A stretch of DNA of 63,748 nt, the filler included, from Hausera hauseri (lineage: Eukaryota): the NCBI GenBank assembly GCA_046269625.1. It is 11 parts of 11 records of this genome, joined end to end, with 100 filler letters (N's around TTAATTAATTAA, not from the genome) between each part and the next. Parts side by side here need not be neighbours in the genome. Positions count along the whole stretch, not along the records: positions 7,480 to 14,884 come from JBJURY010016899.1; 10 more parts are not named here. The stretch is one strand, 5' to 3'. Every line of letters begins with the position of its first letter. Position 1 is the stretch's first letter. Under the pieces are notes generated by a model that was not told where the DNA came from, did no database searches, and saw nothing but the letters and a program-made list of their open reading frames with translations. Shown here piece by piece: positions 480-41,489 of the stretch. Both the position numbers and the translations under genes were made by a program.

Positions 480-2929
480 CCATATTCCTACCATACACGT
501 TCCTCTCAAGCAGCCCCTTTAGTTCTACCTGCAGCATCCTCGTTGGTCAATTTCCCTTGTGTCGACTATTTTACCGATAAACAACATTCCAGTCGCACGT
601 GGCTGGAATTCCACGCACAATGGCTAAGATCGAATAAGATCACTGACCCTTTCCTCAAGGCAAATAGCTTATTAATACTTCTACTAGCTAGTCTTAAATC
701 GCTGCTTCCAAACCTTTCCGAAAATTTTCAAACTTCAGACCCATACGAAACGCTCTTTAACGCCGTTTTAAAACTTACCGAGCCCTCTCTGAATAACATT
801 ATCCAAAATATTTTAATGATAATTCAACAGGAGATCAAAAACCCTCTGAATTTTTACAAACCTCTTTGACCCAATTAAACAAGTTAGGAGTAAACCAGAC
901 AAACAATGCTGATTTATTCCATAGATATTTCGTTCAATCGTTGCCGAAAGAAATACGCGCCTTATTAATCGTCGTTGAAGATACCGCTACGTTGGAAAAG
1001 TTAGCACAATTGGCTGATAAAAGTTAAGAAATATTAAATACACACCATACTCCAATTGTTGCAGCCGCATTACAACCGTCTATGACACCATCCAATGCAG
1101 AAATCGTAGCGCTGAATAACCAAATAAACGCTCTCATGGCTGAAAACACTGCAATATACCAAGCTATTTCTGCTTTAGCGTCTAAACTGGACACTTTATC
1201 CATGCCGCGACGAGAACAATTCACAATTAATCATAGCCGTGCTTCATCGAACAATTCGAAATCCGCTAGGTCCCCTACTCGACCTATGCCGTGCTATTAT
1301 AACACTAACTTCAAGAACCAATCCAGCAAATGTTGCTTGGGGTGCCAATTCTTTACACCCGCGTTTCAAAAATCTGATATTGTTTGTATTTACCATAATA
1401 GGTTCAGCAATAAAGCCCGAAACTGCATCAACGGTTGCACGCTTCCCAACCGACCTGACAAATCCCATAGTAATTTTCCCGACTCCCCAAACCTGTCCAT
1501 CCAAAAAAACTGACAAAGCCACCAGATGTTCCGACACATGCTGGCAAAGACTCCCATCGTCATTGTAACAGCTGTACGAATGCTGTCCTCACATTAAATG
1601 CCTTCATTTCCACCAAGCCCAATCAGCTAATCAACTTTCTAATAGATTCCAGAGCGGCAGTATCCCTGCTACTCATGTCCACCAAAATATAGATTACCTC
1701 ACCAACCACAACTAAACTGTATACAGCAAACGGCTAAGCTTTACCTGTATTCGGCACAGACAAGGTTTCATTTACATTGCCACTATTCTCCGACATTCTC
1801 AATTGGACTTTCATTGTTGCCGACACACAATCTCCAATAGTTGGGACTGATTTCTTATCTTTCTACAACCTCCTTGTAGATTGCAGACAATGTCGGATCA
1901 TTAAAAGCAGTTCAACAAAGCCAAACTCCACCAATAACCAACCGATCACGCGGCCTATTTCGCCTATAAAATCCATATTAAATAAACCATCAACCAATGT
2001 GAATAAAAACCTTCTTAATACCAATAGTATTAGTCCTACGTTTTTGTTGAAGTCCGATTTACCGTTTCTCGCACTAAATCTAATCAGTCCATTGCCATAA
2101 CAACAACAGCCCTTACTACGCTTAGCCAAGAAATGCAACAGTATTTAACCAAATCTTGTTTTCATAAAATAAAAAAGGACCCAGCATTTCGACCGGCTGA
2201 TACAACGTTTCATCATATAATCACAGAAAATTCTAGGCCCGTTAGGCAAAAACTCCCCACACTTTCACCATGCCGTCGACAGGCTGTCCAAGCGGAATTC
2301 TCTGCACTCGATCAACCTGGCATAATAAAACGCTCGAAATCATCGTGGGTATCACCACTCTACGCCGTCCCAAAAAAGGATGGCACATTCCGTCCATGCG
2401 GCGATTATCGCCAACTTAATAACTTCACTACCATGGATGCGTATCCTCTACCTTTGATTAAGGATATATTGCATTCTTTACACATGACCACAATTTATTC
2501 GACTACAGATTTTGAAAAAGCCTACCACCAAATACAGGTGGCACCTGAAGACATCCAAAAACGGCTATAAAAACACCTTTTGGTCTTTACGAATACGTAT
2601 TCATGCCGTTCGGATTAAAGAACGTAACACAAGCCTTTCAACGGCACATTTATTCAGTCCTTTCAGGTTTACTATTTGTATATCCGTACATCGATTATAT
2701 ATTAGTCGCATTGACATCGCCCAAACAACACGAAGAACATCTCGGACTAGTTTTCCAACGCTTATACAACTACAATTTGCAAGTAAACTTTTCTAAGTGT
2801 TCCTTCTTTCAGAAAAATTCAATTTCCTTGGTCACGTCATCACACCTGATGGTCACAGTCCACAGCCTGATAGAATTCATCAGTTACGAAACATTGAGCT
2901 ACCGAACACACACACACTTCATCCTTTAG
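480..2929 (+). mobile_element. Decayed Ty3/Gypsy LTR retrotransposon (family A): gag-protease-RT, truncated
   Basis: Gag-like ORFs 543-1513 ending in CxY(H)xxF..A..C motifs; protease remnants (FLIDSRAAVS; WTFIVAD..PIVGTDFL); RT motifs SSWVSPLYAVPKKDGTFRPCGDYRQLN, MPFGLKN, YIDY; several stops and frameshifts. Confidence 0.92.
1504..1513 (+). promoter_or_regulatory. Putative -1 ribosomal frameshift slippery site A_AAA_AAC at the gag stop
   Basis: AAAAAAC immediately followed by the gag TGA (1511-1513); the -1 frame continues toward the protease. Confidence 0.6.
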
Positions 2930-3094
2930 CGAACAAATCATGAGAAATAATATGATGTGTTACAATCATTCTCCTTGTGAGTACTAGTACTCAATCATGA
3001 GTTCGTCGTACAAAATAAAATTCACACAACTTTTTACAAAACGAACGAACGCATTTACAACGATGACGATGATGAATTTGACTTTTTAACAATG

Positions 3095-4131
3095 TCCATT
3101 GGTCTGATCGTGAGGCGACTATAATAGGAAATACTCAAATACTGATTGGCTACGGGCTCAAGCCATTTCCCCAACCAGCAGACTTGAACAATGGGAAATT
3201 TTTACTGTTTGAAATTTTCCCACCATTTTCCCCATAGTCAGACAACGTTGAAATTGTGCGCATTCGATTCCCCGACATTAATTTGACATTTGCACCGAAC
3301 ATTGCGCAATTCGTAACTCGTGTCTTGCTTCTCATAACATATTTCCTCTTTTGCTCCTTTTGCTTATAGCGCCGCCCAGTAATATTTTCGACTCTCGCGG
3401 CGCTAGAAAATTTTTCTCGCCTCATCCAGCTCTACCAATTTCCGCCGGTGACATGTGCGACATGTGCTTCCGGCTGGGGAGGGTCTCCGACCACAAAACA
3501 AGAAATGGTCAGAATTGCTAGATAGGTTGGGAAAACTGGTTTCCAGATCGATCTGAGCACTTTTGGAAGGGGTTAGGAGCCAACACTACTACCTACTATG
3601 GTGAATTTGCCTTTAACATTGCGATTTTTTGTTCGTTTGTTTGATTGCATTTCCCACCCCGATCCATTGGTCTGATCGTGAGGCGGCTATAATATGTAAT
3701 TTTCCGCAGCTTATGGGCAATGTATTAGACAAATTTCCGTCACTGGCAGTCTTGAACATGGGGAAATTTTACCCCTTTTAAATTTTCCCATCGATTTTTC
3801 CCCATGTTCCCATGGTCTGAGGGACTTGTAACAGTCTCCATTGCAATCGCCAATATCGATTTACCCCTTGTGCACATTTTCTCAGTGCTAGGAACATGTT
3901 TTGCTTCTTCCTCTTCTAGTGCCCCGCCCTTACATTTCTGTAAACCACACCTCTTTTTAACTTTTGCTCACCTCGTCACGAGATATCGATATATATGATC
4001 CGAACCTCTCTGCTCGACCTCATTTTCTGGGGGGGGAGGCGTGAAAAAATTTTAGTGAGATGTTCAGAATAGCCAATCAGGCGGGGAAAACTGGTTGACG
4101 GACCAATCAGAGAAGTGCGGTGGAGAGCTCA
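3095..4131. repeat. Two tandem ~570-bp units of a dispersed CCAAT-box repeat element
   Basis: Unit motif CCATTGGTCTGATCGTGAGGCG(A/G)CTATAAT at ~3097 and ~3664, internal GGGAAATTTT...AAATTTTCCC inverted repeat, paired CCAATCAG boxes; homologous to 58840-59377 and 25577-25670. Confidence 0.85.
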
Positions 4132-5141
4132 CATTAAGTATTCACACATTGGTGAAAGCACGAACAGTCATAAACACAGATAGAAAATTTTTAAAATAAT
4201 GAAATTTTGAATTTTTCTCTCAACCGAACTCTAACATAACTGTTTATAAATAATTTTGATTTTTATTTCCATTAATTCCAATACTGTGTTAAATTGCATT
4301 GAATTATTTTTGCAAAATGCTTTTTAACAACGTATAACAAGCATTAACCCATCTTTTCTGGAAATTTTCTGAACGCTATCGTTTTAATTGTATTCGGTTA
4401 GTAGTAGTCGTAATCTTAACTGTTCAGAAGAAACACAAAAACAAGTGAAGCAAATTTTAGTGTAACAAATCGTAATCGGAAGCAGAAAATGTAAACTAAA
4501 TTTCATCCATATTAAGAAAATAATGAACCATTTCGAGGCAATGTTTATAAAAAATTATTTGACATTTGATGTGTCTGTCTCTATTATCTCAAGAACGGAG
4601 AATTCTTTCATTAAATTTCGAGTGCTATCTCAAATTTGCGCCATCTCGGATTTTATTCTATTGTCACCGTTTCCGGCACACCTCTTCGTTCATGTCTGAA
4701 GTGTAGCTTAATATTGTTTTGAAGAAAATTTTAACGCTAAGTTCCAAGTTAAGTAGGGAATCTAGAAAACGGTACTGTGTACTTTGAGGGTCAGAGCATG
4801 TCTGATTCTATTTTGCCCTTAATGTTTAACCCCCCAGGATACCTTTCCCAACAAAATTCACCCCTCATTGTAACCACCATTACTCAACATTCTCCTACCC
4901 TCAAGGGGAACATGGGGAGGGAAAAGTAAGTTACACCAATAATTAAATACTATTAACAATTACAATAAATGTGCAAGATTAAACATGCAGAAGAAGATAT
5001 AATGTCACACAATACAGAATTGAAGGATGGTACACCAATAACAATATCAACAAATAAATACGATATTTACATAACAATAACAAAAGTTCATCAAATAAAC
5101 AATGTCACTAGATAAGCAGGTCAATCAAAGTAATGTCAGTG

Positions 5142-7109
5142 TTAGTCATCGAGATCAATGCTTTCTTCGGAGATTCTGCTGATTAATAGATCTTGACAGT
5201 CCGCCTTCTTTCCGATCGGGACTCGTTCTACTGGGATAAGGATTGTTTGTCCATTCTTGAGCAACAGTACATATTTTAGGTCTGCCTGTTGATGGCTCTT
5301 CTCCAATGAGTGGGCGACTTGATCTTTTATTAATTTTACTTGTAGTCTAGTATTGAGTTTAACTCCAAACTTGATGGGTAACTTCAATACTATTTGAGTG
5401 TTCATATATGGGAGAAATGAATATTTATTCTCCATCCTCTGATAAGCGAATCCGATCACTAAATTCCTCTCTGAATTCCATTTACTAATTTCAAATGACT
5501 TAATGGGTTTTTCAATATAATAAGGTCGATCCACTGTATAGACTGGCACAGGGAGATTGAGATATCCACTTTTAATGATTATACCGAAATTATAAGTGAC
5601 TTTTCTTTGATTAGTTAGCGTATACTGTATAATTTCGGACAGTTGATTAATTTCTATTGTTTCCGTTTGGGTTTGTTTATTGTACTGTAATTGAGTCTCG
5701 GTCCAATTTGATTGTTCCAAATCATCCTGATCATCTTCTGGTGCCATCAATTGCAGTATATCCTGTTGATCAATAATCTCTTCTGAAATATCTGAACCAA
5801 CTTCATCTACCACGACATTTGGCGTATTCAGTTCTCCATCTTCAGTCATCTGTTCCATGATAGGTCTATTGGTGTGGGCTTCAACATGATAGACCCAAGC
5901 GAAATCTATCAAATATTTTGTTCTATTATAAAATAGATCTCCGTGATCAATTATATTAGCCTGGAGAGTTTGCGGCATCCAGCTACCATCTTGCAAGTTC
6001 TGAATAATTTTGTAGATATCCATGGTTAACTCCCATCTTCCCATGGTATCCTGATCATAAGAGAATCCTCGGACAACCTTAGGTAATTTTAGTTCCTTGG
6101 CGACGTTAGTAATATCAATTGTATTGAAGGACTTCCCGGTTACTTCTGGATGTTTGAGTAGATCAATGACGCCAGCAAAATAATTGGTAGGGATATCTAG
6201 AAGTTGTATCATCTTTTGGGTTTCGATTCCCACCACGACGGCACCAAATAACCACTGTACTACTTCCTTGGTGACTTCATATATATCTACTCCGAGGCTT
6301 TCTAGTAATTGAAAGTTTATCCCATGTCTTCCTGAATTACAATTATGGATCTTCTGTCTGCTGACCACTAACGATCGGTATAATATGGTTTTCGCCGTAT
6401 TTGTTATTAGCACTTCCAACGGAACAGGGGAATTATCATGTAGAAATCCCACTGAGACTGTTAGGAATCGAATTGTATTTGATTGTCCAGTTTGAATAAA
6501 ATTGAGTTTGTTATCTCTGATCGCCGTAGGAGGATTTTGCACAAAGATTAGTGGTCTTGGTAAGGCTAGACTCTTTTCCGGGATGATCCACTCGATCATC
6601 ATAACAATTGGTATCCTTATTGGTCTAATTTGAATGTTATTTGTACTCATAGGAGTACTGAATGTCAGTGTTTCTTCCTCGTATAGCGTTGCCACATTAG
6701 ACATTGTAAAATATGCATTCTTTGAGGTTTTTAGCACAATTGTTCCTTTTGCGATGTGGATGGCCAATCCTTCAATAGAAAAACATTCGGAAACTACGTC
6801 ACTGATAGAAAATTGATGAGATTCGGTAATATTGATGATTTTGAGATTTCTGTTTAATGCTAAGCCATACTTCAGATGATTTGGGATTTTTGCTACTTGA
6901 AGATAGATCGACTGAGGATAGATACATGCTTGGCGTCTAATAACGTTATAAAAATTCTTCGTCATCGTGTGGGAAGAGGCCGAAGCCTTTATACTATACT
7001 GCATTAAAAGTTCCTCAATTGGTAGAATGTCGGCGTGAAACAAAGGAAAAGCGGTCGTAGATATGCTTTGGTGAGATATTTTGTTTACTTGAGGCATCTG
7101 AAAATTCAT
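5142..7109 (-). CDS. Intact intronless ~655-aa protein with a central DEDDh (ISG20/REX4-like) exonuclease-like domain lacking catalytic residues; probably a mobile-element or viral accessory gene
   Basis: 720-codon open frame; likely start MNFQMP at 7109 downstream of TATAAAA (7205-7211). Segment FLTVSVG..LEVLITN..TILYRSLV..IHNCNSGRHGIN..EVTKEVVQWLFGAVVVGIE..IQLLDI follows the spacing of the REX/ISG20 pattern; acidic stretch follows. Confidence 0.65.
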   Translation of the reverse strand: MNFQMPQVNKISHQSISTTAFPLFHADILPIEELLMQYSIKASASSHTMTKNFYNVIRRQACIYPQSIYLQVAKIPNHLKYGLALNRNLKIINITESHQFSISDVVSECFSIEGLAIHIAKGTIVLKTSKNAYFTMSNVATLYEEETLTFSTPMSTNNIQIRPIRIPIVMMIEWIIPEKSLALPRPLIFVQNPPTAIRDNKLNFIQTGQSNTIRFLTVSVGFLHDNSPVPLEVLITNTAKTILYRSLVVSRQKIHNCNSGRHGINFQLLESLGVDIYEVTKEVVQWLFGAVVVGIETQKMIQLLDIPTNYFAGVIDLLKHPEVTGKSFNTIDITNVAKELKLPKVVRGFSYDQDTMGRWELTMDIYKIIQNLQDGSWMPQTLQANIIDHGDLFYNRTKYLIDFAWVYHVEAHTNRPIMEQMTEDGELNTPNVVVDEVGSDISEEIIDQQDILQLMAPEDDQDDLEQSNWTETQLQYNKQTQTETIEINQLSEIIQYTLTNQRKVTYNFGIIIKSGYLNLPVPVYTVDRPYYIEKPIKSFEISKWNSERNLVIGFAYQRMENKYSFLPYMNTQIVLKLPIKFGVKLNTRLQVKLIKDQVAHSLEKSHQQADLKYVLLLKNGQTILIPVERVPIGKKADCQDLLISRISEESIDLDD

Positions 7110-7185
7110 TATCGATTTGATTCTGGTTCTGCGATTGAGCTGGAATTGTGGTTTAATTGCTGCACTGTTTTGCGAAAAGGGATCT

Positions 7186-7368
7186 GAATGAGAAATTTCA
7201 TGAGTTTTATAGTTATTTTGGTGTGTGTGTGTGTCTAATGACCACCACATAACGAATGAAAAGGAAAATACTGTTCCTAGTGTGCGTGGCGCGGGTGTAT
7301 GCATGAATAATTGCGATGACGTCAGCTGTGGCTGGTCACGCGATTTTATCGGGCAGTAGCACGTGCTA
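7186..7368 (-). promoter_or_regulatory. Compact Pol II promoter for the 5142-7109 gene
   Basis: TATAAAA (7205-7211, minus), Inr-like TCATTC (7186-7191), CRE TGACGTCA (7317-7324), palindromic E-box TAGCACGTGCTA (7357-7368). Confidence 0.5.
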
Positions 7369-7379
7369 GTGCTAGTAAG

Positions 7380-7613: not shown

Positions 7614-8920
7614 TCAGGTTATGCTATCATAAAGTTTGTCGTGGTACCCTTTTCCCCGATTATCTCCATTCTGATTTTTACCGCACTTCTTACAGTTTTT
7701 GGAGACTAGAAAAATCATCGCTGTTATTATGACCAGAACGGAAATTGACACACCAATTATAGTGATTATTGGTAAACTGTTCGGTTAGGTAGAACTTTGT
7801 GTCGTGAACACATTCAGAGTGCTAGTATCTTTATATGACATCACTTCAATTTTATTACCAAGTGTTCGTACTGTAAAAGTTTTAGGGTTTTTACCCTCTG
7901 CGGTCATTCTGATTATATATTCATGTTGTGGGCGTAACGACTTACATACTGTTCCCAAACAATTTCTCTTTAGAATCACAACTTGGTTGGTGTGCTCGGT
8001 GCGACACTCAATTTTAACGTTCGTATCTAGCGTTTCTTCAGCGTAGAATAGAATTCTATCATTCTTCGTTATGATTCTGACGGGTATAATTCCTGGTATT
8101 TCGTCCGTAGTGATACTCGTAATACGGTGAGTTGTACTCGGCGCCGTGGATGGTTTTCCCGTAGTGGTCGGAATTGGGAGTTCCCATATTTCATTCTTTG
8201 GGCGATATCCTCTAAGGAAAATGCTTCGTTCACCTGGATAGGTATCGTATAAATTAAATTGTAATTGGTATCTTTGCCCTAATTGTATTATACAGCATAC
8301 TGTGGAGCGTCGCTTTCCCAACGAACAATACGCCGGTCTAGGGATAGAAGTGTTCGCTGGTGTAAGCTGGACAGAAATTTCCTTGTCTTCTGGTACTCCG
8401 AATTTGGTCCTAATCCGAATACATTGATTCTTTAAGTCCTTGTAAATTCCCACAATGTTGTCATCTAAAATTCTGTTAATCGGATCAGTGCTTCGAATTA
8501 TTTCGTCCGTTTTAGCTTGATTTGCGTCCTTCCGTTGTGGCATTCGAATTGTGAGCTCTGAAGCTATGTCGGCTTGGGCTCCAAATTTATAGGAATAAAA
8601 CAGCTGAAAGCTATATCTATAGACTTTCCCGAAATCTAAGTTACAGCATCTTCTGTGACGCCCGTATGGAAAATCACACACTCTTATATCGTCTCCAGTA
8701 GCTACGAATGTTATTTGAAATCCTATGTGGCTCTGAATAGGTTCGTCTGTTTCAAACCATGCACATGGTTTACTCCAGTCCATATCGCGTACTCTAAGTG
8801 TCTGTAAATTTTGGATATACTTTTGTTTCTCGGTTCTAGCGCTCGATTTCGCCATAGGCATGTATGAAGCAATTAATGATAAGGCTAGGACTATTTGTAC
8901 ATAAGATATTGGCCTAGTCA
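7614..8920 (-). pseudogene. Type I membrane protein fused after integrase: signal peptide, three FN3-like domains, Thr-rich linker, TM, short tail (one TAA at 7785-7787)
   Basis: After the IN GPY module and RRYNLRS: YVQIVLALSLIASYMPMAKS; repeats CCNLDFGKVYRYSF / CCIIQLGQRYQLQF / CKSLRPQHEYIIRMTAEG..FTVRT; beyond the TAA the frame reads PNSLPIITIIGVSISVLVIITAMIFLVSKNCKKC..YHDKLYDSIT*. Confidence 0.7.
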
Positions 8921-9200
8921 CAATTGATGACGTCTTCTTTTCTTTAGTTGAACGTAGATTATAGCGCCTATTCGGCCTTATTTCGGTTTTGACTACCCTT
9001 TGGACTGATGTGACTTCCTCTTTTCCATTCTTATTTATGTAAACTGTAGTCGGCGTAGTCCTTGTAACTTCGTAAGGTCCTTTCCCTGTCCTGGTAAGCT
9101 TAAGAGATGTGCCTTTTCTCGCTACCGGGTAGTGCACATAAACCCAATTTCCTGCTTCCCAATCATGCGGTTTAGCCTTTTTGTCATATTGTCCTTTAAA

Positions 9201-12200
9201 TTATTCTTGGTATTCTTTAGATAATTCTTTGGCTATTTCCCAACATTTCTGTAATCTGGACTGCAATACTTCAACGAAGTTTTGCTCTAAATCCTCCGTT
9301 CGAGCTGTATATGGGATCAATCTTAGGTCTGTGGGCAATACAGCTTCTCTACCATACGTCATAAAAAATGGCGTAAATCCTGTTGCCGGATGAGGGGTTG
9401 TATTAATGGCGAACTGTGTGCCCTCCAAAAACTCATCCCAATCCTTTTGGTCTTTCGCAACTACTGTTGACAAAACCCGTATAACGGTTGCGTTCATTCG
9501 TTCGACCATTCCGTTACATTGGGGGTGATAAGCCGTGGTAGTTAATCGTTCGATCTCAAAAATCTTGGAAATTTTCACGAACAACTTGCTCGTAAAGTTT
9601 CTTCCTCGATCTGCCAATATTTGTTCGGGCAGCCAGTATCTACAGATGATTTTCCGTACTACCGCTTCTGCTAAGGTCTCAGCCTTTTGATCCATTAATG
9701 CTATAAGTTCAACGAAGTGAGTCAGTCGGTCAATACAAGTCAGAATATATCTATTATTCTTGTGAGTCGTAGGCAACGGTCCTACAATATCCATAGACAT
9801 TGCTTGCATTGGTCTATCGGGTACGTCAATAGGCTTGAGTTCAGCCACATAATTCTTTACTTTCTTCTGTTTGGTTGCACATACTTCACAAGCATTCACC
9901 CAATTCTTTACGTCAATGTAGATGCTCGGCCAGTAGTATTTGTTTAATATTCTTTCCAACGTCTTTTCCATGACATGTGTCCGGCTAAATATGAGTCATG
10001 TTCAGCCATGAGCACTTCTGCCCTTAAGTCCTTTGGTATGACGACTAGTTTTCGTCCCTTTCGTTCGTAATATAATACGTTCTCTTGATTGGAATCTCCA
10101 GTGGTGCAGTATTTGTGGCCATATCTTCGCAAGTGCTTCCACAATTGGTGTCCTCTGGGGGTTTTATTATCGTTCACGAATTCTACGATTTGCCGTATAA
10201 CATTGTCCTTTCGCTGTTCAATAGTAATTTTTAGTGCCTTGTCTAAAGTAAGGGTTCGTTGTCTCTCTACTAAATTTTCGAGGTGAGCCCTCCTCATTAC
10301 TGTCACTGCGCTAGTTTTGGTTTTAAGTCTAGATAGTGCGTCGGCATCAACATGTTTGTTTCCAGGCTTGTATTGAAATTCGATGTTGTATCGTGAGATC
10401 TCTTCAATCCATCTGTTTAGCCTACAAGTTGGATTGTTCGCTCTACCCTTTAGAGTCGTAACTGCCTTATGATCTGTGACGATTATAATCTTTTGTCCGT
10501 AGACGTATACATTAAAATGTCTCAAGGCTTCTTTTACCGCTAATGTTTCCAGCTCTGTTACGGAGTAGTTCTTCTCAGCTTTCTTTAGTGAACGTCCTCC
10601 ATATGCAATTGGATGTTCCAGTTCTTCGTCTTCTCGCTTTTGTGCTAATTCGTATCCAATACCTTCCTTACTAGCGTCTGTTTTGATTATGAACGGTAGA
10701 TTGAAGTCAGGATATCTTAAAACATGCTCACTAGTTAGAATTTTCTTCATCTCATCAAAAGCCTTTTGTTCTACGTCGGTCCATTTCCATTTGATTCCTT
10801 TTTTCAACAAACGGTATAGTGGCGCATTTATTTTAGCGTTTTCTGGCACATAGGTGGCATAATATCCACATAATCCCAACCAATGTCTTAGTTCCTTTTG
10901 GTTCTTGGGTTCTATGCAGTCTGATATTTTACTCAATAATGACTTATCCGGTTTCGATCCTCCTTCTCCTACTATATGTCCAAGGTATGATACGGCATTT
11001 TGGGCCCATTTACACTTCTTGGGGTTCAATTTTAGTCCTGCCTGTTCCAATCTCATAAGTGTATCCTCAATATCCTTTAAATGGTCCTGTTCTGTTTTTG
11101 ATGCAATCATAAGGTCGTCCAAGTAGGCGAATGCGTGTTCCAGTCCCATCAGCATTTGGTTCATCATACGGGTAAAGATGGCTGGTCCGGTGGTTATCCC
11201 AAATAGCATAACATTAAATTCGTATATGCCGTCGTGTGTCTTAAATGCCGTTTTGTAACGGTCTTCTTCTTCTATTTCTACCTGCCAATATCCAGATTGC
11301 AAATCGAGTGTAGTAAACCATTTTGCTCCCGAAAGTCTGTCTAAAGCTTCCTTTACCGATGGTAATGGGTAAGAATCTTTCATCATCAATGTGTTTAACG
11401 CTCGGTAATCGATACAAAATCGGTGCTTACTGGTACCTTTTTTCTTAACCATTAATATCGGTGAATACCAAGATCGATAGCTCGGTCTAATTATGTCGGC
11501 CTTTAACATTCGTTCCACTTCCTTAGTTATCTCTGGTCTTAGCGAATGTGGAGGAGGATACCATTTTGGCATCTTTTGATCTTCCAAGTCTATTTCATCG
11601 TTAGATCCAGGCTTCTTCTTAAGCGGAATTGTGAGTCTTAAAGCTTTCGCTCTACCAATATCTTCTTCATCTTTTGCGATAATTGAGCTATAGCGACAAA
11701 GTAATTCGTAGAATTGGCAATACGCTTCTGGCGAAAATTTTGTTTCAACGTGGGACGGAAATTCGGCACCCCTATACGGCTTTTCTTCAATAGTAATTGA
11801 CGAAACTCTATGCGTATGTCCCAAAGTGGTATTGGCGTAAAGTTTGATCGCAGTAGGTGCGTTATTCGCTATCCTAATGGGTACACGGCCGGTTGATACT
11901 CTCGTTAAGACGTTGCTGAGTGTAAGATTTGGGTTAAGCGATTCCTTCGGCTCGAAATATACTGGTTGATCGTCGTCTTGCCGTATTTGAGCGTATATTA
12001 ATAATTCAGTTCTAGGTGGTATGTTTTCGTCTACCGGAATCCATACCTCTCCTAATTTCCTATCTTTGGTGGTTTTAACTCCTTTTATTGGGCCTAGTTC
12101 TATCAGTTTGCCTGCATTGAAATCTATCGCTATATTGGGCAATTGTCTTAATAAGTCGCATCCTATTACTACGTCATCCGTCAATTGTTCCATTACGGAA

Positions 12201-12553
12201 AATTCGTGATGAAAAGATTGTCCCATTATGTGAACTTCTGGTTTCCAACGAAATTTGCTTTTTGATGATTGCCCGAAAGCTCCAATACTACCTGGATCAG
12301 TCGTGGGAGGTGGATACAGTTGTTTCCGTAAGAACTGTGGTATTGAATCGTACTTTATCAGCGATATCTCTGATCCTGTATCGATTAGCGCATAAACTTC
12401 CCAGTCTTCCAGCTGAATTTTTGCGAAGGGTCTTCCTTCGATTACTGTACCATAATAATTCGGTGCTTTACGAGGTTGTCGGACCATGGATACCTTATAA
12501 CCGTTTATAGTGACTTCTGTACTTCCGACCGGCTGGTCTACTAATTGTCTCAA
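9201..12553 (-). pseudogene. pol: Pol: aspartic protease, RT, RNase H, integrase (Ty3/Gypsy order)
   Basis: ALIDTGSEIS; RFCIDYRALN; LDLQSGYWQV; YLDD; KTDAS..IAYGGR..NYSVTELE; HDSYLAGH..CEVC; MDIVGP..DRG..GMVERMN. Confidence 0.97.
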
Positions 12554-12871
12554 TTTCCCGATTAGATAGAGTTCGTTATCTGTACTAGTCGCATTTTCTA
12601 CTCCTTGGCCTCTAACTGGGGGCTGAATATTCGAGTTCTTGAGATTTCGTGTCTTACTGCGTCGCGTAAATATCGATTGTATTTCGTTTGGCTTGGGTAT
12701 TCTAGGCGAATAGATTATACCGTGGTCGTCAACCGCTGGTCAACGATACAGAGCGGATGTTCTTTCCGTTCCGTGGATCTTACGCAATATTCCGTATCGT
12801 TTTGTTCCTTCGTATGGATCCTCTAGATTAATTGGCTGTCGATAGAGGTCTGTCTGACACGAACTCAGAGA

Positions 12872-14884
12872 TTATTTCTCACAATCTTCATATATCGTTG
12901 CCGTCGGCGGCAATACCGGTAATGGTAATTTCATAACGGAGTAATTTTTATGTCGGCCTATTCTGGAGGTGGGGTCTCCTCCCTTATGCTCGTCATCGTC
13001 CGAATTATTTCTTCGCATTTTACTTTCTATGAATTTTTGCCTGTAATTAAATATGCGTCTTTTACGCTTTCGATTGTGATAACCCACATGTCGCTCTACC
13101 TCTGTTTTCCATTTACTTTCTTCATAAGCCCTCAAAAAATTACCAAAAGGAGTGATAATGGCTGTTAGGATTTTGCATGAGAATCCCGTTAAGGTAAATA
13201 TCTCGTACCCATTTATAATCGCTTGGATTATCGCTTTTATCAATTGAATCAAGAAGTATATCGCTAGAAATCCTGACGCGGCTTGTCCGAATATAAGGAA
13301 TCTTTCCCAAATCTTGTATAATATTTCTGTGGTTACCTTTTTGTAATAGACAACACCTAGCAACGACTCCCATTTCGCTTGATATCGTGAATCTTCCAAT
13401 ATTGTGTGCATTGCTCTGTTCAATTCGTGCGTTTGCTGACGAGGAAAAGCAAGAAATTGTCTGAACGCCTCTACTTCTTTCGGTCGATAAATACCTTTTT
13501 CGGCTGTGTCCTGAAATTTATCATCAGTTATTCCTTTTACTAAGTTTGTGCCTGTCAACTTGATGGGTGGTGCAATAATACCACCGTTTGGCAAACTCAC
13601 CCAATCGGTTCCGCTTCGCCTAAACATCGGCTTTCCTAAGCTGGTTTTACAATCTTTCAAAACCGTTGGTTGAGTGGCATTCGTCAACAGAACTCTAGTA
13701 ATTGGCGTTGCCAATCTCGGTATATCCTGATATATCACTGGAAGCTCTTGTATACATCTCTTCTCTTCCACATTAATCGGTACGTCTTTCTTCTCGCACT
13801 CATACGTCAATAGCACTTCTCCGGTTACTCGTCCGAAAACACCTTCCTTCATCGGAATTATCAGTGACGCCAGCTCTGGATTGGCATAGATTAGAGCTAA
13901 TTTAGTTCTCATAATTTCCAAGTCTAATTTACAATCGTTTGTTACCATTTTGTGGTATAACTCGGCTATTCCGGCTTGTCCTTTATAGTAAAAGTAGTCA
14001 TCTCTATTCTTCAGATAATCCTCGATTCGGATATCTTGAGTCTCAAGTTTAAATATTCGGGCATTTATTTCAGTCTTAGCTACAAAAAAAGCTTCGTAAT
14101 TAGTAGCATACATTACGACGTCGCGTCGAGTGAGCATAGCCTTCTTCACAAACTTTAATCCATGGGCATCAGAAATTAATATGGTGGAGGTGGACTGTTC
14201 AGCTACATCTTCGCGTGTTTTAGAATTAGTCTCTATATTAGTTATGTACCGTTTTCCAGTCGTTTCGTTGAATTTGAGTTCTTTAATCCCAATGAAATTA
14301 CAATCGGTTTTAGCTGGTGGTTCCCAAATTACCACTGAGCTCCGAAATGGACAAGTGCCGTCCTAGATGTGACATTTGTGGTTCTCGGTGTAGAACTTGG
14401 TGACACTGTGGAACATTACTTTCTGTATGCGCATTTCGGTTTCGTAAAAATCCACTACTACAATGTTTTGCTTTAATCCCTTTCCCGTATCGTATTCTAT
14501 GCCTTGACAATGTCCGGCGTGCATATCCAGTCGTCCTGCTGCAACCTTATATACTCTAATTATTTTCCCTTGTTGCATCTCCAATTCCATCCCATACCAG
14601 TTTATTCTTCCAGTTTCTCTGGCCTGTTTGCACTTCTGACGCTCTAAATAAATCGGAATCGGCGGGGTGGTTGGTTTGATTATTGACGAGTGTCCGTGTA
14701 TCAATCCACAGTGAAAAATACTGCGAGATCGTCTTAACATACATTCTACTCCATCTAGCGCGATTAATTCCCGTTGTTGGTATAATATGTAATCCTTTTC
14801 CTTTGTCTCCAGCTTGTGCGGTCTCGCATCTTCGCACATTTCCAAGTCCATTAGGGAGTACTTCTGGCCAAGTCTAAATCTGTC
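12872..14884 (-). pseudogene. env: Chuvirus-like (class III/gB-related) envelope glycoprotein, one internal TAG at 14363-14365
   Basis: Cys pattern C..LYQQ..VEC..IFHCG..H..C..G..AGR..GHCQG..C..DGTC..VIWE..C; LYHKMVTNDC; FGRVTGEVLLTYEC..C..ELPV; C-terminal hydrophobic WERFLIFGQAASGFLAIYFLIQLIKAII. Confidence 0.85.
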
Positions 14885-16028: not shown

Positions 16029-19000
16029 TCATTGGTGTTGTGGTGGTCGGAATGAATTTCCTTTGAATATTTTAGACACGAATAAGTATTGGCAGGTAAA
16101 CGAAGCGTAATTGTATTCTTTCCTGATTTGATACCCGCTGATATACGTCGAGGCGGACTTCATACCAATAATGTGAAAAAAATGTACAGAGCGTTCTCGT
16201 TTGTTCTCTAAGTAATAGTAATGTAATTTGGCAAAGATGCACCTAGTGGTCAGCCATATACTGCGTTCATAGTTTCGTGGCATAAGTCTTATAGTCCGGA
16301 AAGTAACGCATGGTTCCTGAGGATCTATATCCACGTAATAGACGATATCCACTAGTAATCGAGTAAGGAAATCGGTGTTAAATATTATTTCTGACCTATC
16401 TGCGTTTTCTATGTCTTCACGTGTTGGAATGTTGATTTCTTGCTTTGGGTTCCATCTGGTAATATAGTGTTTATAATTATCAGTCCACGATTGTATTTTA
16501 TAGGTATAATTTTTATTGTAATCCAATTTACATCAAGTCAAATTATGTCCACCTGTGATCATACAGTTAATGGATTCCTTCATCGAATAGGTAAATTAAA
16601 AATAAAATCGATCCGGGGAGTATATGGGCAAATAGGTCATAAAGCAAATGCCTGGTCTTTATCGACACGAAGAGTGATAGTTAGTCTAACTAGTTCGTAA
16701 TTCACTACGTGTACTTTCGTATGATTAGAAACTGCGGCTGTTGTTTTCAAAAAATATCAATAGTATGAACCTAGTGATACTTATAATACTATCCAATTTG
16801 AGGTAAAAACGGTAACTCACGGGTTCCTGACCATCCGTATTCTGTTTTTGAGACAATACTGCTACTTTTGGTTCTACGAATTGTGGTGATTCTAAGTCTA
16901 TCTGGCGTATGAATTCATTATAAGATGTTCGTGCTCGGGTAACTCGTTGCACGGATACTATTTCACGTGTTCAATCCTTTTTGTAAAAATTAGGTTTGCG
17001 GTCTTGTTTCCACAACTTTATACGGTTCTTGGCCGGTACGCGTTAGTTTCAGTGACTTTCCTATCTTAACAGAAGGATAATGAACCATTATGTAGTCACC
17101 AATCTTGCAAGCATGTGGACGTGCTTTATTGTTGAATTGTTTTTTATATCCTGCTTTATATTTCCCTTCGAATTCTTTAGCTTCTTTTTGGAAATATTCA
17201 AGTCTCCTTAGTAAATCTTGGTATTACTGGTCCATATGATCACTTGGTTTCAAGGAAGATGGTAATAATTCCGTGTCTAACGGCAGCGGTGGCAATCTTT
17301 TTGTAAGTGTAGTGTTAATTGCGAAAGCCATAGTTTTTAAATGAAGTTGCCAATCTTTCTGATCGTGTGCGACTTTTGTTGAAAGAATGCCTTGAATTGT
17401 TCGATTCGTTCGTTCAACCATACCATTGCATTGAGGGTGGTAGGAGGTTGTTAACAAATGTTTGCACTGAAATATCTTTGACAATTTTTCGAAAAATTCA
17501 TTGACATAATATCGTACACGGTCAGTTAACAATTGTTTCAGTGTGCCTAATTCTCCATTATTTCATAGAAGAATGCTTCTGCAACAGTACTACTGGTCAT
17601 GTTCTTCAATGGTATCAGAACAACATATCTGGAGTAATAATTAACAAGTGATAATATATTTGTATCCTGCATCTGAGGTCGGAAAAGGTCCCGAAGTATC
17701 CATTGAACAAATTTCCATAGGTTTGCGTGTTTTGGGAAGACTATCCAGAAAAGGTTTTGCGCGAAAACCTCTATACTTCTGAGTAGAACACATTTTTCAA
17801 GAATGTATCCATCCTTCAATATGTTTATTCATTTGAGGCCGATATTTCGCTCTTATACGTTTCAACGTCTTGTTCAAAGATGGGTTACCTAAAAGATGAG
17901 AGTCATATTCTTGTAACATGAGGGCCTTTATTGCTAGATGTGGTAAAATTACTAATTTCCGTTTACCAACTTTGAGTTTTAAAATATAATCTTCAATTTC
18001 TAATTGTTCTTTTTGTTTTTCGTAAACTTTTTGAATATTGTATAATATTTGATCAACTGAATGTACATTTGTTAGTTATTTTATTTGAACAATGAATGAG
18101 TTTCAAATGAGTTGTAAGGTTTCAATATTTCGAACTTGAATTTTTCTCTGTTCATGTAGCATGTCACTAATAATTTTCTCGTTCAACTGTTTGTCTTTTT
18201 CTTTGTTCTGCGACTTATAAGCTGCGGCCACTATTTCCTCATAAGGAAATCTAAAAATCGCACCCGCATCTGTATTATCCTTTTCGAGCCGATATCGATA
18301 TTCAGTGTCGTAATTTAAAAGCTCTAACTTCCACTTTGGAGTCGGCTTGACACATGTCTATTATCCTTTCGTAATGACAGTAAGGCCTTGTGGTCAGTGA
18401 ATATTATAACTTTGTGATCATAGACGTAATATTCGTAATGTCGTAATCCATCGCGTAGTGCTAACAATTCTAATTCGGTAATGGAATATTCCCTCTCAGC
18501 ATTGTTTAAACTGCGTCCTACATAAGCAATTACGTGTTCCGTTGTCTCGTCTAAACACTGTTTGGCTAAAATGTAACTAATGGCCTTGACGCTGGCATCT
18601 GTTTTGAGAATGAACAAAAGTGAAAAATCTGGATATCTCAATACAGGTACAAATACAAAACGTCGTTCAATTTCATTGAATACTTCTTGATTTTCTTCAG
18701 TCCATTCCATTTTTTGGTCCTCTTTTAATAACTTATATTGCGGCTGATTAATTTCTGCGAAATTCTCGATAAATATAGCGTAAAATTCGCCTAATCCTAA
18801 GCAAGCTGTCATCTCATGTACACTGGTAGGTGGGGGATATTCTAATACTTTGGACAGAAAATCTGGACTGGTGTATGTACCATGGTTTGAAACTACAAAA
18901 CCAAGATATCTAACTTCAACTTTATACTATTCACACTTTTTCGAATTCTGTTTCAGTTTTGAAACTCTGATTCGGTCGAATACGTCTCTTAGTTCGACCA

Positions 19001-19439
19001 AGTGTGCTGACCAGGTCTTTGAAGTAATCAAAATATCGCTTATGCATGATAGACCTCGTACTTCTTTTAGAACCAACCGAATAAACTCTTGGAAGAACGT
19101 AGGTGCAATTTTTAATCCGAATGGCATACGCGTAAACTGATAAACACCTGTATGTGTCATAAATGCTCTCTTCCAACGGTCTTTTTCGACTACTGGGATC
19201 TGCAAAATCCGCTTTGCAAATCTAATGTAGTAAAATATTTGCAATTCTTTACCTTCTGGATAATATTTCGTATTCTTGGTATTAGATAGGCATGACTTAT
19301 CAGATGTTTATTTAATGTAACGCAATTTACACACAAGCGATGTTTAGTGGTATTGGATTTCTTTGCCATAACAATAGGAAACGGTCATGGCGATTGACTA
19401 GGTTTGATGATACCCTTATGTAACATTGTTTGTATCTGC
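16029..19439 (-). mobile_element. Large Ty3/Gypsy element, copy 2 (RT-RH-IN plus post-integrase FN3-like extension), heavily decayed
   Basis: MPFGLKIAP; LRYPDFS..KTDAS..EHVIAY..YSITELE; TSYHPQCNGMVERTN. Downstream CKLDYNKNYTYKIQ and DIDPQEPCVTFRT resemble CCNLDFGKVYRYSFQ and DMDWSKPCAWFET of copy 1. Confidence 0.85.
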
Positions 19440-28779: not shown

Positions 28780-29750
28780 TTTTCATTTGTAAAGTACACA
28801 TTCTGATATATCAATTATGACATTCTGCATTAATTCTTCCATTTCTTTTAAAACGTTTGGCTTCCCGAACCCCAAGAAGGGCCGTGTCGTATTTACATAA
28901 CATTACACATCAAATACAGAACAAATTAAATATACAATATACATTTATATAACCAACATGCTTATATACATATACACATTTTATACATTCTCTACATCTT
29001 ATGTCCCCTAGATCTCTTGATGTGAACTGGATTGGCCAACTAAATTGGTTCAAACATTCCCCACTTCTTGGGGTAGTCCGGTCTATAGACATGTCTTCAT
29101 AACTAATCACAGTTCTTAAGTCTTTCCATTCATTTAATTCTTTTTCTATTTTACAAACTTTGTTGATGGGTCGCCGATAGATTTCACCATTTTGTGAAAT
29201 CTCAACAACTCGCACGATCCCATCTTGACCATGAAATATATTGATTATCTCAGCTACTGGCCAATGATTCCTTTTTTCTGCTGTTTCTAATACCCATACT
29301 CTATCTCCTGGATTAATATCAACTTTCCCACTGCCATTGTTTTTGTCCTCCAAGTTATCAATAGCTCCTTCCTCCATCTCTTCCAATATTCATCATTTAT
29401 TAACTGAACATACCTCCATCGTGCGGTTACGCTGCTTTTCGTTGTACCTATTAATTCCGAATCAATATCGATGTTGTGACCAGCTATAATGAAATGATTG
29501 GGTGTGAGAACAATATCGTCTTTACTGTCAGCTGACGGTACCGTGAGTGGTCTATTATTTATGATTCATTCAATTTCACACAAAATGGTTTATAGTACTT
29601 CATCGGTAACCTGAGCATCTGCTAGTATCTTATTCAATGCTCTTTTAACCGACTTTATTAATGCCTCATAAGCTCCACCGAAGTGTGGTGCACCTGGAGG
29701 GTTTAATATCCACCGAATATTGTTTTGCTCCAGATTCAATTTCGCTGAAT
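28780..29750 (-). mobile_element. BEL/Pao LTR retrotransposon 3' end (integrase C-terminus, PPT, 3' LTR)
   Basis: NPPGAPHFGGAYEALIKSVK; INNRPLT; GDRVWV..RNHWPVAEI..GQDGIVRVV..RRPINKVC; polypurine AAGAAGTGGGGAA then TGTTTG starting at 29056; left boundary approximate. Confidence 0.9.
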
Positions 29751-30341
29751 NNNNNNNNNNNNNNNNNNNNNNNNNNNNNNNNNNNNNNNNNNNNTTAATT
29801 AATTAANNNNNNNNNNNNNNNNNNNNNNNNNNNNNNNNNNNNNNNNNNNNCCTTGATGAATTTCTTCTTGTTTCAACTTAATCACTGCCGCATAAACTGT
29901 CATTTTCGATTTAAATGCTGATAAACTATCTGGTTCAGACATGTTTTTCACAAGTGACACTTACACAGGGGTGTTTATATAAACTTTGCGAAATTTAGAC
30001 AAATTGGGGGTGGAAAAAGTGAAACCCAACAGCGGCCAGAATGTACTAGGGGGTTGGATTAGTGAAACCCAACAGCGGACATATAATGTACTGAATATTT
30101 AATATTGAATATTGATTTCCGATCTTGGGGGTTGGCCGCGTGTCGTCACATCCCTATACTCAGGAACATCGAAACAAAGTAAAATAGGTATACCAAAGGT
30201 AACATTAACAACTTATGAACTTCTAGAACAATTAATTAAGAAAGCTAATCCAAATCAACTCAAGAAGATACGAACAATTACAACAATTCCATTAAAGTCC
30301 ATAATATAACCGCTAGAAATTCCATATCGCAAATTACAAAA

Positions 30342-30590
30342 TTGCTGCAGAATTACAAACTGCACGGAGGCCTAAATAAAGCATTGAAGCTATTATTAAA
30401 GGAATGTGATCAAAATCGACTACAGATGGCATTGAGATGCATAGTGTTCAGCTTTAAAAATCAAACAGAGGTTGATGCCAAGTTACACCATATGGTAAGG
30501 GACTTAGCCCATTACATGAATAAACTAACGAAAGATTGGGTAACCAAACAAGGAGGTTGGGATGACATGCTCAAGAAATTTAACCATACA
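30342..30590 (+). pseudogene. Bcl-2-family-like domain (clear BH2, degenerate BH1)
   Basis: ..LAHYMNKLTKDWVTKQGGWDDMLKKF fits the BH2 W-x3-GGW motif with its preceding helix; in frame with the glycoprotein signal peptide. Confidence 0.65.
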
Positions 30591-30619
30591 ACACTAATGT
30601 ACCCCAGAGATACCAATGT

Positions 30620-32425
30620 CTCAGATTGGGTTGTACAAATTATTTATCTGCTACTATACTTGATAACCGTGAGCAGTTTAAAAACCACGAAAGCGTTAGA
30701 AGCCCATGATTGTTCCAAACTGGAAATAACAACCAGACTTTCACTGGTAGATATAGGTAAATATCAAAACGCTAATCCAATATCAGTAAAGAAAGAAGGT
30801 CCTTACAACTATAACTTGTATCAAAGAATCAGCTATCAACAAGTGCAGGTAAAGGAATGTGAGCTTACAACTGTAGCCATAATTCGTGGAATTCAGTAAT
30901 TATTCCACTCGGACTACCTAAATCCGTGAAAATAATGGCTGAAAATTGCAGAAAAGCCATGGATTCAATTAATGTAGGCCTTCAACAGCCAGTACAAGCA
31001 GGCATAGAAAACGAGTATATTCACGCATAGTTACAGCCGGTAAAATATAGATTGGATACGGTGGAGCTTGTAAAGGAGAAAGTATGATGATAAATGGACA
31101 AAAGAAATTCGCTGTGGTGCAAATAGAAGATTATACTGTCACTATAAAAGAATATAAAGCAAATTTCAATGCAATCGCAGGAAAAATGTTAACCGCACCA
31201 TCCTGTACATATTCCGATGGAGTACCCTAGGAGAATCCAACCTAGTTTGGGAAAAAGTACCTATGTATGAAATACAAGATTATTTATATTATAATGACGA
31301 GTACCAAGAACCTATACATAACCATAATATAAGTCTACCTAGTCCAGGAACCTTGAAACAGACCACTTTCCTAAAATTTTTAATGTCATCCAGTGACAAA
31401 GATGACATCGTACTGGCATGTAAAGGAGCAGTATCTACTTGTGGATCAAATGCAGTTTACTCTACAAGCTATGAAGACCTATTCGTAACAAACATAACAG
31501 GAAATACAGGATAGTTGCTAGCCAAAGATACAAAGTGGTATCTATATACAAATAACAAGATAGACTATATCTATACCGAAAAAATGGATTTGGTCGAATT
31601 ATATAATATGATGGTTTTGGGAGATTGTAAAATCAATCAAACATTGAAGCAACATAACTTAATACTAGCCAGAAAATTCCCAGAACATATTGCCATAATT
31701 ATGGGATATCGCCCTGGAACATTTCGTAGAGTACAAGGTGAAATACTCCACGTGTATCAATGCCCTCCAATAGAGGTAATTCCAATAACAACCACAAGAG
31801 AAAATTGTACAAACGAATTAATGGTCCAAAACAACGATAAAAATATAAATAAAACAGGATATGTTCGCCCTGTTACCCTACCGAAATTAGCTTTGCACCG
31901 TGTTACAAAGACTTCTATCCAGCCTTCAAACTTAGTGACGGAATATGGCCCAAAACACGCCAACCATCTATGATGAACATACCACAGACGATTGGACTAC
32001 TACCATTGGATAAAGGCATGAAATTTAAAGTAAATAAAGAACTCCCCAGCAGCGGATTATATTCATTAACAGACCTGGAAGCAGTAAGAAAACATGTATT
32101 GTTTCAGAATATCCGAGAGAACATCATCACAGAATTTGTATATGCTGTTACAAAAGTATCAGATGGTGTACCTAATTATGGAATGTTACTGCCAATCGAT
32201 CATTTAGCAAGAACAGCTAAAAAGGCCCTTTATGACTTTTGGAATAAACTGCTTATTTTTGGTCAAGTTATATCTGGAGTTTTGGGATATACGTTATAAT
32301 CACAACCATAATAGTCATTAAGACAAATAGGAGCTGCAAGAAATATAAAGAAAGCACGTGGTTCTACATGGCAAATAATGTTAGGATGTTTCCCTTCTAT
32401 GGCGCAATCAGTATTGATGTATTGA
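30620..32425 (+). pseudogene. env: Chuvirus-like envelope glycoprotein (multiple frameshifts)
   Basis: Colinear motifs with 12872-14884 in several frames. Confidence 0.85.
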
Positions 32426-32812
32426 CATACAACGAAACTTGACAAATTAAGAAAAGAACTTCATCTAACTCCAGAACTAGTACAACAGTTACAAGCCTTT
32501 ATTAAATTAACAGTGGAAGAATACCTGGTTAAATATATATTATTGAGAAAAAAAGCTGGACAACACTTCAAACCAAAAGCACCAACATACTACAAACCCA
32601 AACCTATTGATGAATTTCCGGAGTATCCCGAATACGAAGAAATGAAGGTCACATCAATGCATGATCTTCCTATGGCAAGAGATCTAGATGAATACACCTG
32701 TTTACCAAGTACTAAGCACCCACCGAACGTATTCCGACAATATAATACCACATATACTGGACGGAATAATACAAAATTTATTTTTATAACCCAAACCACT
32801 GCTACAACAGGA

Positions 32813-34072
32813 AACAATCCCTATGTCCATGTACGATTTAATGGATTAAATATTATAGCACTACTAGATACCGGAGCATCCGTATCAATGATTCGACATT
32901 CTTACTTAACTGACGATCAAAAAGGAGCAATCATGCCCAGAAATATAGTAATAGCAGCAGCGAATTCCACTCAAGTGCAATTCCCAGGAAAAATAGACGT
33001 CAAAATAAGAATCGACGGTAACCTAAACACTATCACCTTGTTTGTGGTTGATGACAAAATATTGCCAGTGCCTCTAGTCATAGGAATGGATGTATTGTCT
33101 CAAATTTCAGGTCTCTCTATGGACTTATCCACAAAGACACTTAAGTATACTCTAACCAATTTGTCAATCGAGGATATTAGTATGACGTTAACTCATGATG
33201 TTATTATAAGCCCACAACAACAAGTAATGGTGGTGTTAATAATACCGCCACAATACCACAAGCAATATAGCATTTTTGAGCCAAACCTATATAATAACGA
33301 AAAATATAAGATTTCACAATATCCCTTATTTGTACCAAAAGGAGTACAACGTTTAGAATTGCCAATACAAAGCATCAATAAAAAGGCAATCAAATTACGA
33401 CAAAACCTCAATTTAGGACAATTACAACGAGTTAAGGTATGCGCAGCAACATTTCTGGTGGCAGATGAAAACATTGAATTCAAGGACGGCAATTTAAATC
33501 AATACCAACAGAAAATTATTACAGTTATTCCATAAATATCGAGATATTATAGCTGTGAATGATAATGACTTCGACAGAACCAACGTTATTCAACATCATA
33601 TAATCATCATATAATCCGTATAGAATGGGTGAAGTTGACAAATGGTTGAACATGGTATTATTAGACATAGTTTCTCTCTATGGACATCCCCAGTAGTATT
33701 AGTGCAGAAGAAGGACGGAGCACAACGATTATGTGTAGACTTCAGAGCAGTAAATAATGTTACAAAGAAGGATAATTACCCATTACCAAAGATAGACGAA
33801 ATGCTCACAGCCTTAAGAAATGCCTCAATATTCACCACTCTAGATTTGCAACGCGGATTTTGGCAAGTCAAAGTTGCCGAAGAAGATAAGCAGAAAACAG
33901 CCTTCTCTACAGGAACTGGATTATGGGAATTTAACGCTATGCCCTTTGGCTTCACAGGAGGATTTGCCACATTTCAAAGATGTATGAATTTAGTTTTGCA
34001 ACGAGTAACCTGTTGTATTGTGTACATAAATGATGTAGTAATATTTTCTGAAAATTTTGAACAACATCTAGA
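32813..34072 (+). pseudogene. pol: Pol (protease and RT N-terminal part)
   Basis: NPYVHVRFNG..ALLDTGASVSMI..LVIGMD; SLWTSPVVLVQKKDGAQRLCVDFR; LDLQRGFWQV. Confidence 0.95.
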
Positions 34073-41149: not shown

Positions 41150-41476
41150 CAGTTCGTCGAAAACGACGAGCAAGTTCAATGTTTAATGTTTCTCAAAAGC
41201 GAGAATTGAAAAAGTTACCGTTATTAAAAGACACTCCGCCAGCAGAAAAAGAATTATTTCTGAAAAAGATTGATCAATGTTCTGTTGTGTTTGTTTTTGC
41301 CATAGATAAGTTAAGTGATTTGAAGGACAAAGAAATAAAACGATCGGCATTAAATGAATTGATTGAATATATAAATTGCAATAAAGGAATTCTAACGGTA
41401 AATCTCTATCTGGAAATTGTTAAAATTCTTGCTGTAAATTTATTTCGAACTCTTCCGCCGTCGAGTAATCCAACTG
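41150..41476 (+). pseudogene. PPP2R5: PP2A B56 (B') regulatory subunit N-terminal fragment
   Basis: SSMFNVSQKRELKKLPLLKDTPPAEKELFLKKIDQCSVVFVF..LSDLKDKEIKRSALNELIEYI..AVNLFRTLPPSSNPT, truncated after this point. Confidence 0.9.
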
Positions 41477-41489
41477 CTGCCCTTTGCCG

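Follow-up and report, generated by a model that had tools for sequence, protein, structure and literature searches.

An in-frame class III glycoprotein ahead of protease-Pol in decayed Ty3/gypsy elements from Hausera hauseri

Can a retroelement encode its envelope glycoprotein upstream of, and in frame with, its protease and polymerase? The question is raised by a 63,748-nt stretch of DNA from Hausera hauseri (the window), which consists of 11 short contigs with identical N44-TTAATTAATTAA-N44 spacers between them and is not one locus. A first-pass annotation of this DNA described an element, here called copy 1, on the contig at 7480-14884, in which a chuvirus-like glycoprotein (G) runs into protease-Pol; it took env 3' of pol to be the order in enveloped elements and proposed a G-protease-Pol polyprotein with Gag far upstream or absent. 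Our answer, which we hold to be quite probable, is that three related Ty3/gypsy elements are present in the window as decayed fragments, and that their stop-free relatives encode Gag-(ubiquitin-like, Bcl-2-like)-G-protease-reverse transcriptase (RT)-RNase H-integrase-second membrane protein in one open reading frame (ORF), likely translated as a single polyprotein that would cross the endoplasmic reticulum (ER) membrane four times.

One reading frame from glycoprotein to Pol

On the minus strand of copy 1, a single frame extends from 14884 to 9947 and takes in G with its transmembrane (TM) segment and tail, then protease, RT and RNase H, and lastly the first part of the integrase zinc finger. 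Its only interruptions are the three stops that had been named, TAG 14363-65, TAA 12872-74 and TGA 12740-42, and no Gag-like sequence lies between G and protease, as the first-pass annotation stated. A frameshift near 9962-9965 moves the remaining integrase into another frame (tblastn), which, with stops at 9201-03 and 7785-87 on the way, also covers a second membrane protein and ends at TGA 7614; after the first of these stops it goes on for 528 codons. The Pol order protease-RT-RNase H-integrase and the gypsy-type RT and RNase H are those of Ty3/gypsy elements (Metaviridae), and the best PDB RT match for a profile of the relatives is 4ol8, which we take to be Ty3 RT. The spacer between protease and RT gave no Pfam match and no meaningful PDB sequence match.

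The glycoprotein matches the Pfam family PF24664 (Monjiviricetes_fusion) on either side of the stop at 14363-65 (E values of 1.7e-12 and 6.7e-43). An AlphaFold2 model of it, built from 97 sequences with an X at the break, is confident (predicted local distance difference test score [pLDDT], 87.8), and its leading matches in Foldseek were to glycoproteins of chu-like viruses (E 6e-34) and to gB of herpesviruses (E 5e-13). When a profile of the 97-sequence alignment was compared with the PDB, herpes gB alone was recovered (33 of 33 rows; best E 0.0026). The class III fold of G is complete and its cysteines are conserved; an FGQ..G..IY motif of the G TM region recurs in 13 of 16 relatives tested. 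The predicted structure identifies G as a chuvirus/herpes-gB-type class III glycoprotein, in line with the similarity first proposed, and G likely acts as a fusogen.

We considered whether the stops between G and protease-Pol are programmed, to be read through or conserved as terminators. In favour of this, copy 1 has two such stops and element 2, a second element described below, has one. Contigs of the copy 1 family that match copy 1 at 80% likeness or more number 29,980 from run X1 and 3,704 from run X2; X1 is possibly the source sample, so X1 depth is not independent of the window. TAA 12872-74 is missing from 6908 of 6962 X1 depth (49 contigs) and from 160 of 160 X2 depth, and TGA 12740-42 from 1171 of 1244 X1 depth (17 contigs) and 32 of 36 X2 depth. 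Overall, the two stops are lacking in 94-99% of X1 depth and 89-100% of X2 depth, which refutes programmed readthrough for the copy 1 family; the database relatives have no stop at this position either, and we regard readthrough or a conserved stop as very improbable. No indel is listed around the two stops in the family contigs. The stop at 9201 is likewise missing from 46798 of 46889 X1 depth. The stops at 12872, 12740 and 9201 are private decay of copy 1, as the first-pass annotation had suspected of those ahead of the protease.

Family differences listed in 12700-12920 fall at third codon positions of the G-protease frame in 17 of 27 cases (p 0.0015), and the linker is therefore under coding constraint. 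This population-level evidence indicates that selection keeps the G-protease junction open. Family contigs span the whole 7.4 kb at similar depth, and the copy 1 family is very abundant, with a very high copy number.

Relatives, phylogeny and known systems

A protease-Pol query yielded 58 long proteins, 7 of them annotated with PF24664. Six of the 58 have G ahead of protease in one stop-free ORF; P0037 has a glycoprotein-like segment after integrase. A G-protease query against cluster representatives gave 647 matches, of which 150 were listed and 18 scanned. Eleven of those scanned have G and then protease, three end in or near G, two have G after integrase-region domains, and two are without a retroelement domain. 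Stop-free polyproteins with G before protease number 17 in total, none with a stop between the two, which agrees with the proposal that the active form carries G and protease-Pol in one ORF.

This open junction bears on a rival explanation, that spliced mRNAs, or mRNAs started internally, are the main source of G and the second membrane protein, with stoichiometry and assembly as in ordinary errantiviruses and with Pol untethered in practice. In retroviruses and insect errantiviruses, env is as a rule expressed from a spliced mRNA. Spliced-only expression would not need an open junction, so both the linker held coding in frame by selection and the 17 relatives that keep the junction open count against it, and we judge this explanation unlikely.

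Because both contigs with G stop so near it, absence of Gag upstream cannot be judged from the window: the copy 1 contig ends within ~5 codons of the start of mature G, the element 2 contig (29851-34072) begins ~850 bp upstream of the corresponding point, and the relevant contigs, 4-7 kb long, have ends that fall inside the coding region. A Gag profile made from four seed proteins, searched against the window, gave no match anywhere in it; among 20 G-bearing polyproteins, the same profile matches the N-terminus of 8, 2 of which are seeds. In these eight, Gag opens the same ORF and G begins 490-1250 residues in, beyond the reach of either window contig. The upstream capsid search suggested by the first-pass annotation was therefore negative in the window and positive in the relatives, and of its two options for Gag, far upstream or absent, the second is not borne out. 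Ubiquitin-like and Bcl-2-like domains lie between Gag and G in some relatives, and P0017 carries ubiquitin-like and ankyrin domains. In 18 of 18 relatives shown, G opens with a hydrophobic stretch that ends directly ahead of a conserved [YF]DC; a hydrophobic segment precedes G in 6 of 6 relatives and follows it in 5 of 6.

The same gene order appears on the plus strand in element 2, with TGA 32423-25 after G. The first-pass annotation saw here a divergent copy of copy 1; the order and the stop stand, but identity to copy 1 is 23-34% in G and 46% in RT, and these values mark element 2 as a different family of the same lineage rather than a copy. At least four changes of frame disrupt its G between 30875 and 31877, and over five frame segments this G is 53-67% identical to the stop-free P0072. 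The Bcl-2-like region in frame upstream of G matches Bcl-xL (E 0.003) when profiled with six relatives; relative P0063 matches PF00452 at E 1e-3, and inspection by eye showed a Bcl-2-like motif before env in 6 of 18 relatives. Element 3, on a separate contig, is 34-42% identical to copy 1 in Pol and 23% identical over 247 aa of the post-integrase region (E 2.6e-8; tblastn), and the RT tree makes it the sister of copy 1 (support 99).

In a G tree (126 rows, FastTree), window G and all 16 proteins with protease after G belong to one 20-row clade (support 99), apart from stand-alone chu-like G and from P0092 and P0114, in which G follows integrase. In an RT-RNase H tree (66 rows, quick IQ-TREE), an 18-row clade (support 94) unites the three window elements with every G-before-protease protein that has RT (11 in all); its other members are two partial proteins and two elements that lack env. 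The nearest database relative of copy 1 is only 49% identical in RT-RNase H. This RT phylogeny, another check that had been suggested, unites the window elements with the G-before-protease proteins but also admits elements without env; it is compatible with one lineage and is no proof of one.

These trees also address whether G is part of some other, nested element, either of BEL/Anakin type or an endogenous chuvirus, inserted before a Gypsy pol by chance. BEL/Pao elements such as Anakin do carry a chuvirus-type G of the same Pfam family, PF24664, according to the part of the report considered here (Dezordi et al. 2020, PMC7642597). A DUF5641 domain lies at 28910-29389 on the minus strand (E 2e-11), on another contig than copy 1; such domains are presumably typical of BEL/Pao integrase C-termini. 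Yet the same order recurs in two window families and 17 database proteins, window G groups apart from P0092 and P0114, and the family contigs cross the 7.4 kb evenly, so that we give chance nesting almost no credence. In contrast to Anakin, which is BEL/Pao and not Ty3/gypsy and has G after integrase (as in P0092) in another part of the G tree, the window elements have neither a BEL-type Pol nor G 3' of integrase.

The closest described systems are the planarian Burro/GYPSM1 elements, giant gypsy-like long terminal repeat (LTR) retrotransposons of 25-30 kb whose env matches mononegavirus fusion glycoproteins (Arkhipova and Yushenova 2019, PMC6431247). One Burro ORF of ~4,900-5,100 aa holds Gag, SUMO-like, BCL2, env, protease, a dUTPase-like domain (assigned by HHpred) and RT-RNase H-integrase; accessory domains include MATH, BIR, ankyrin and Smc. 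Its env was described in 2019 as the first case of an env lying in frame between gag and pol (PMC6431247). The window elements share env in frame with protease-Pol in one ORF, and some relatives share ubiquitin/SUMO-like and BCL2-like domains before env; the likeness is drawn from the published description, not from sequence alignment with a named Burro protein. In contrast, the parts of PMC6431247 compared include no second post-integrase membrane protein, extra protease-like domains or membrane topology.

GAG-ENV-POL Ty3/gypsy elements with a gB-type ENV have also been catalogued in Nematoda, Bryozoa and Platyhelminthes, including nine flatworm elements, in the portion considered of Chary and Hayashi (eLife, PMC13524379). 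The window elements resemble these in Ty3/gypsy Pol, in a class III envelope of the gB type known from herpes simplex virus (HSV), and in env upstream of pol; in the relatives with a Gag match, env lies between gag and pol. Judged by eye, the motifs at the N-terminus of G in the window and in the relatives are laid out as in six Schmidtea 'C1a' ENV rows, which we infer to be Burro elements, and not as in the bryozoan and nematode rows compared (PMC13524379). The host of the window elements is presumably a flatworm. The single-ORF and four-pass aspects are not discussed in those portions of its main text. Non-canonical endogenous metaviruses of nematodes also have env before pol, with a glycoprotein from an RNA virus, as far as the portion considered of Sacco et al. 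2022 (PubMed 35550022) describes them. The assumption that enveloped elements place env 3' of pol accordingly fails for Burro (PMC6431247) and the catalogued GAG-ENV-POL elements (PMC13524379). Env ahead of pol in one frame is a genuine layout, but it has been published already and is not new; it therefore leaves the view of enveloped retroelement organisation in place, and what the window adds is a divergent, very high-copy family of the Burro-type lineage.

A second membrane protein and a predicted four-pass topology

Behind integrase, copy 1 encodes a second membrane protein that matched no Pfam family. Its two hydrophobic segments were found in 6 of 8 relatives scanned, and a C..L.P.T.Y.V-type repeat motif occurs in the post-integrase region of 7 of 11. 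An AlphaFold2 model of the ectodomain has a mean pLDDT of 48, with the last module at 71-89; all 40 of the 40 Foldseek matches listed contain fibronectin type III (Fn3) domains (best E 1.1e-6, low TM-scores). Such repeats resemble those of cell-surface receptors such as neogenin, DCC and Tie2. An Fn3 identity for the ectodomain is thus a prediction with moderate support. The protein ends in an S/T-x-V/L tail in 4 of 11 relatives, a pattern that we take to be that of class I PDZ ligands. The Fn3 protein is possibly a receptor-binding, attachment or receptor-mimicking partner of G. In another protein, P0128, a PF24664 glycoprotein follows immunoglobulin domains within 1000 aa; this could be a gene-call chimera or another pairing of fusogen and receptor domains.

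Gene order, the open frame in the family and its relatives, the class III fold of G and the hydrophobic segments are established; expression, cleavage, topology, particles and infectivity are our proposal. In this proposal, Gag would be synthesised in the cytosol, and the hydrophobic segment just before G would act as an internal signal that sends G into the lumen. Transfer would be stopped by the TM segment of G, leaving protease-Pol as a cytosolic loop. A second internal signal after integrase would then make the Fn3 ectodomain lumenal, with the last TM segment as anchor and a short cytosolic tail. Signal peptidase would free both ectodomain N-termini, the Gag-side and Pol-side pieces would stay at the membrane of G, and the element's own protease or proteases would cut the Gag and Pol parts loose. 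Capsid, enzymes and fusogen would thereby be co-located for budding in roughly equal amounts, without a spliced env mRNA or frameshifting. A polyprotein strategy of this kind resembles that of flaviviruses and alphaviruses. The tethering of Pol to the cytosolic side of G, as first suggested by the annotation, follows from the predicted topology only. Two or three aspartyl-protease-like domains each were observed in P0013, P0014, P0016, P0021, P0060 and P0065, located after the TM segment of G and after integrase; the extra domains, next to predicted membrane crossings, may process a membrane-bound precursor.

Several observations weigh against the single four-pass polyprotein. Neither Gag nor LTRs nor a complete element can be seen in the window, where the contigs concerned end within the coding region, and 12 of the 20 G-bearing relatives lack a Gag match, most of them apparently partial gene calls. 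In P0014 and P0016, on contigs of 26-30 kb, Gag could be in a separate ORF. The env-less P0027 and P0033 lie inside the RT clade, within which the placement of copy 1 is not resolved. The second membrane protein is absent or unlike in P0013, P0014 and P0074, and its Fn3 model, drawn from a 5-sequence alignment, has low confidence over 201 of 336 residues. Hydropathy is near threshold (1.7-1.75) for three of the window segments behind the topology.

We suggest, tentatively, that Burro-type elements are enveloped invertebrate retroviruses that make the whole virion from one four-pass polyprotein, with a two-protein envelope in which a class III fusogen is joined by a captured Fn3 receptor-like attachment or mimic subunit, dividing labour as in herpes- and paramyxoviruses. 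Such a division of labour is not described for a reverse-transcribing element in the parts of the Burro and GAG-ENV-POL literature compared. A further explanation, which seems to us rather doubtful, is that these elements replicate inside cells only and that G, the Fn3 protein and the Bcl-2-like domains act on the host cell, by cell-cell fusion, membrane remodelling, receptor decoy or blocking apoptosis. The receptor-like Fn3 repeats and the PDZ-ligand-like tails would suit such a role, as would the many host-regulatory domains of Burro polyproteins (PMC6431247). The completeness of the class III fold, its conserved cysteines and a G clade that co-varies with architecture fit a retained entry function instead, and are compatible with the intracellular explanation too. 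The four-pass topology with an Fn3 protein behind integrase is the less documented part of the virion proposal and the more useful lead, predicting processing and particle content in ways testable on natural planarian Burro elements. RNA interference of smedwi-2 derepresses Burro elements in planarians, according to the part considered of PMC8532177.

Feature coordinates and other sequences in the window

Table 1. Features of the three Ty3/gypsy elements, in window coordinates
Feature	Position	Strand	Remarks
Copy 1: G ectodomain, class III (chuvirus G/herpes gB-like)	13295..14884	-	N-terminus cut by contig end; internal stop 14363-65
Copy 1: G TM segment, then amphipathic/hydrophobic helix	13238..13294	-	Kyte-Doolittle peak 1.75
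Copy 1: predicted cytosolic tail and G-protease linker	12437..13237	-	Copy-private stops 12872-74, 12740-42
Copy 1: retroviral aspartyl protease	12140..12436	-	PF00077 (RVP) E 7.7e-7
Copy 1: protease-RT spacer	11735..12100	-	Aligns with relatives' spacer; position of Burro's dUTPase-like domain
Copy 1: Ty3/gypsy-type RT and RNase H	10388..11449	-	PF00078 (RVT_1) E 8.5e-38, PF17919 E 5.6e-34, PF17917 E 1.4e-31
Copy 1: integrase (zinc finger, core, C-terminal GPY region)	8925..10039	-	PF17921, PF00665 E 1.3e-13; broken by frameshift ~9962-9965 and stop 9201-03
Copy 1: hydrophobic segment, predicted internal signal	8868..8924	-	Hydropathy 1.71
Copy 1: ectodomain, two to three beta-sandwich modules, predicted Fn3 repeats	7788..8861	-	~360 residues
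Copy 1: C-terminal TM (7760-7704) and short tail	7614..7760	-	Hydropathy 2.91; behind stop 7785-87
Element 2: Bcl-2-like domain, in frame upstream of G	30282..30600	+	Weak: PF00452 E 0.025 alone
Element 2: predicted internal signal sequence directly before G N-terminus	30618..30700	+	Hydropathy 1.72
Element 2: G and TM	30701..32422	+	Several frameshifts and stops; PF24664 E 4.2e-15; profile matches
Element 2: linker, protease (32813-33109), RT start	32426..34072	+	Cut by contig end; PF00077 E 7.1e-8, PF00078 E 1.2e-21
Element 3: decayed RT-RNase H-integrase of same lineage, then post-integrase protein homolog	16248..19438	-	Separate contig

The window also holds sequences of other kinds. At 34373-35860 (plus strand), a 495-codon ORF, followed by one of 163 codons, had no Pfam or PDB match; by eye it contains strings that we take to be HUH-like, Walker A/B and motif C-like, presumably suggesting a CRESS-virus or other rolling-circle Rep. 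A stop-free ORF of at least 745 codons at 5142-7379 (minus strand), truncated at the contig end, matched nothing in Pfam, the PDB or the relatives' polyproteins. An intron-free PP2A B56 fragment (PF01603, profile positions 1-90, E 4e-20) and then an ankyrin-repeat ORF lie at 40864-43887 (plus strand) and look like captured host-gene fragments. The fragment of protein-primed DNA polymerase B at 54349-55176 (minus strand; PF03175, E 3e-7) likely derives from a Polinton-like element. Another decayed Gypsy family, with RT and integrase fragments, is spread over three contigs at 1840-4140 (plus strand) and 58850-63748; its non-coding repeats at 3628-4132 and 58858-59378 share 70-84% identity.

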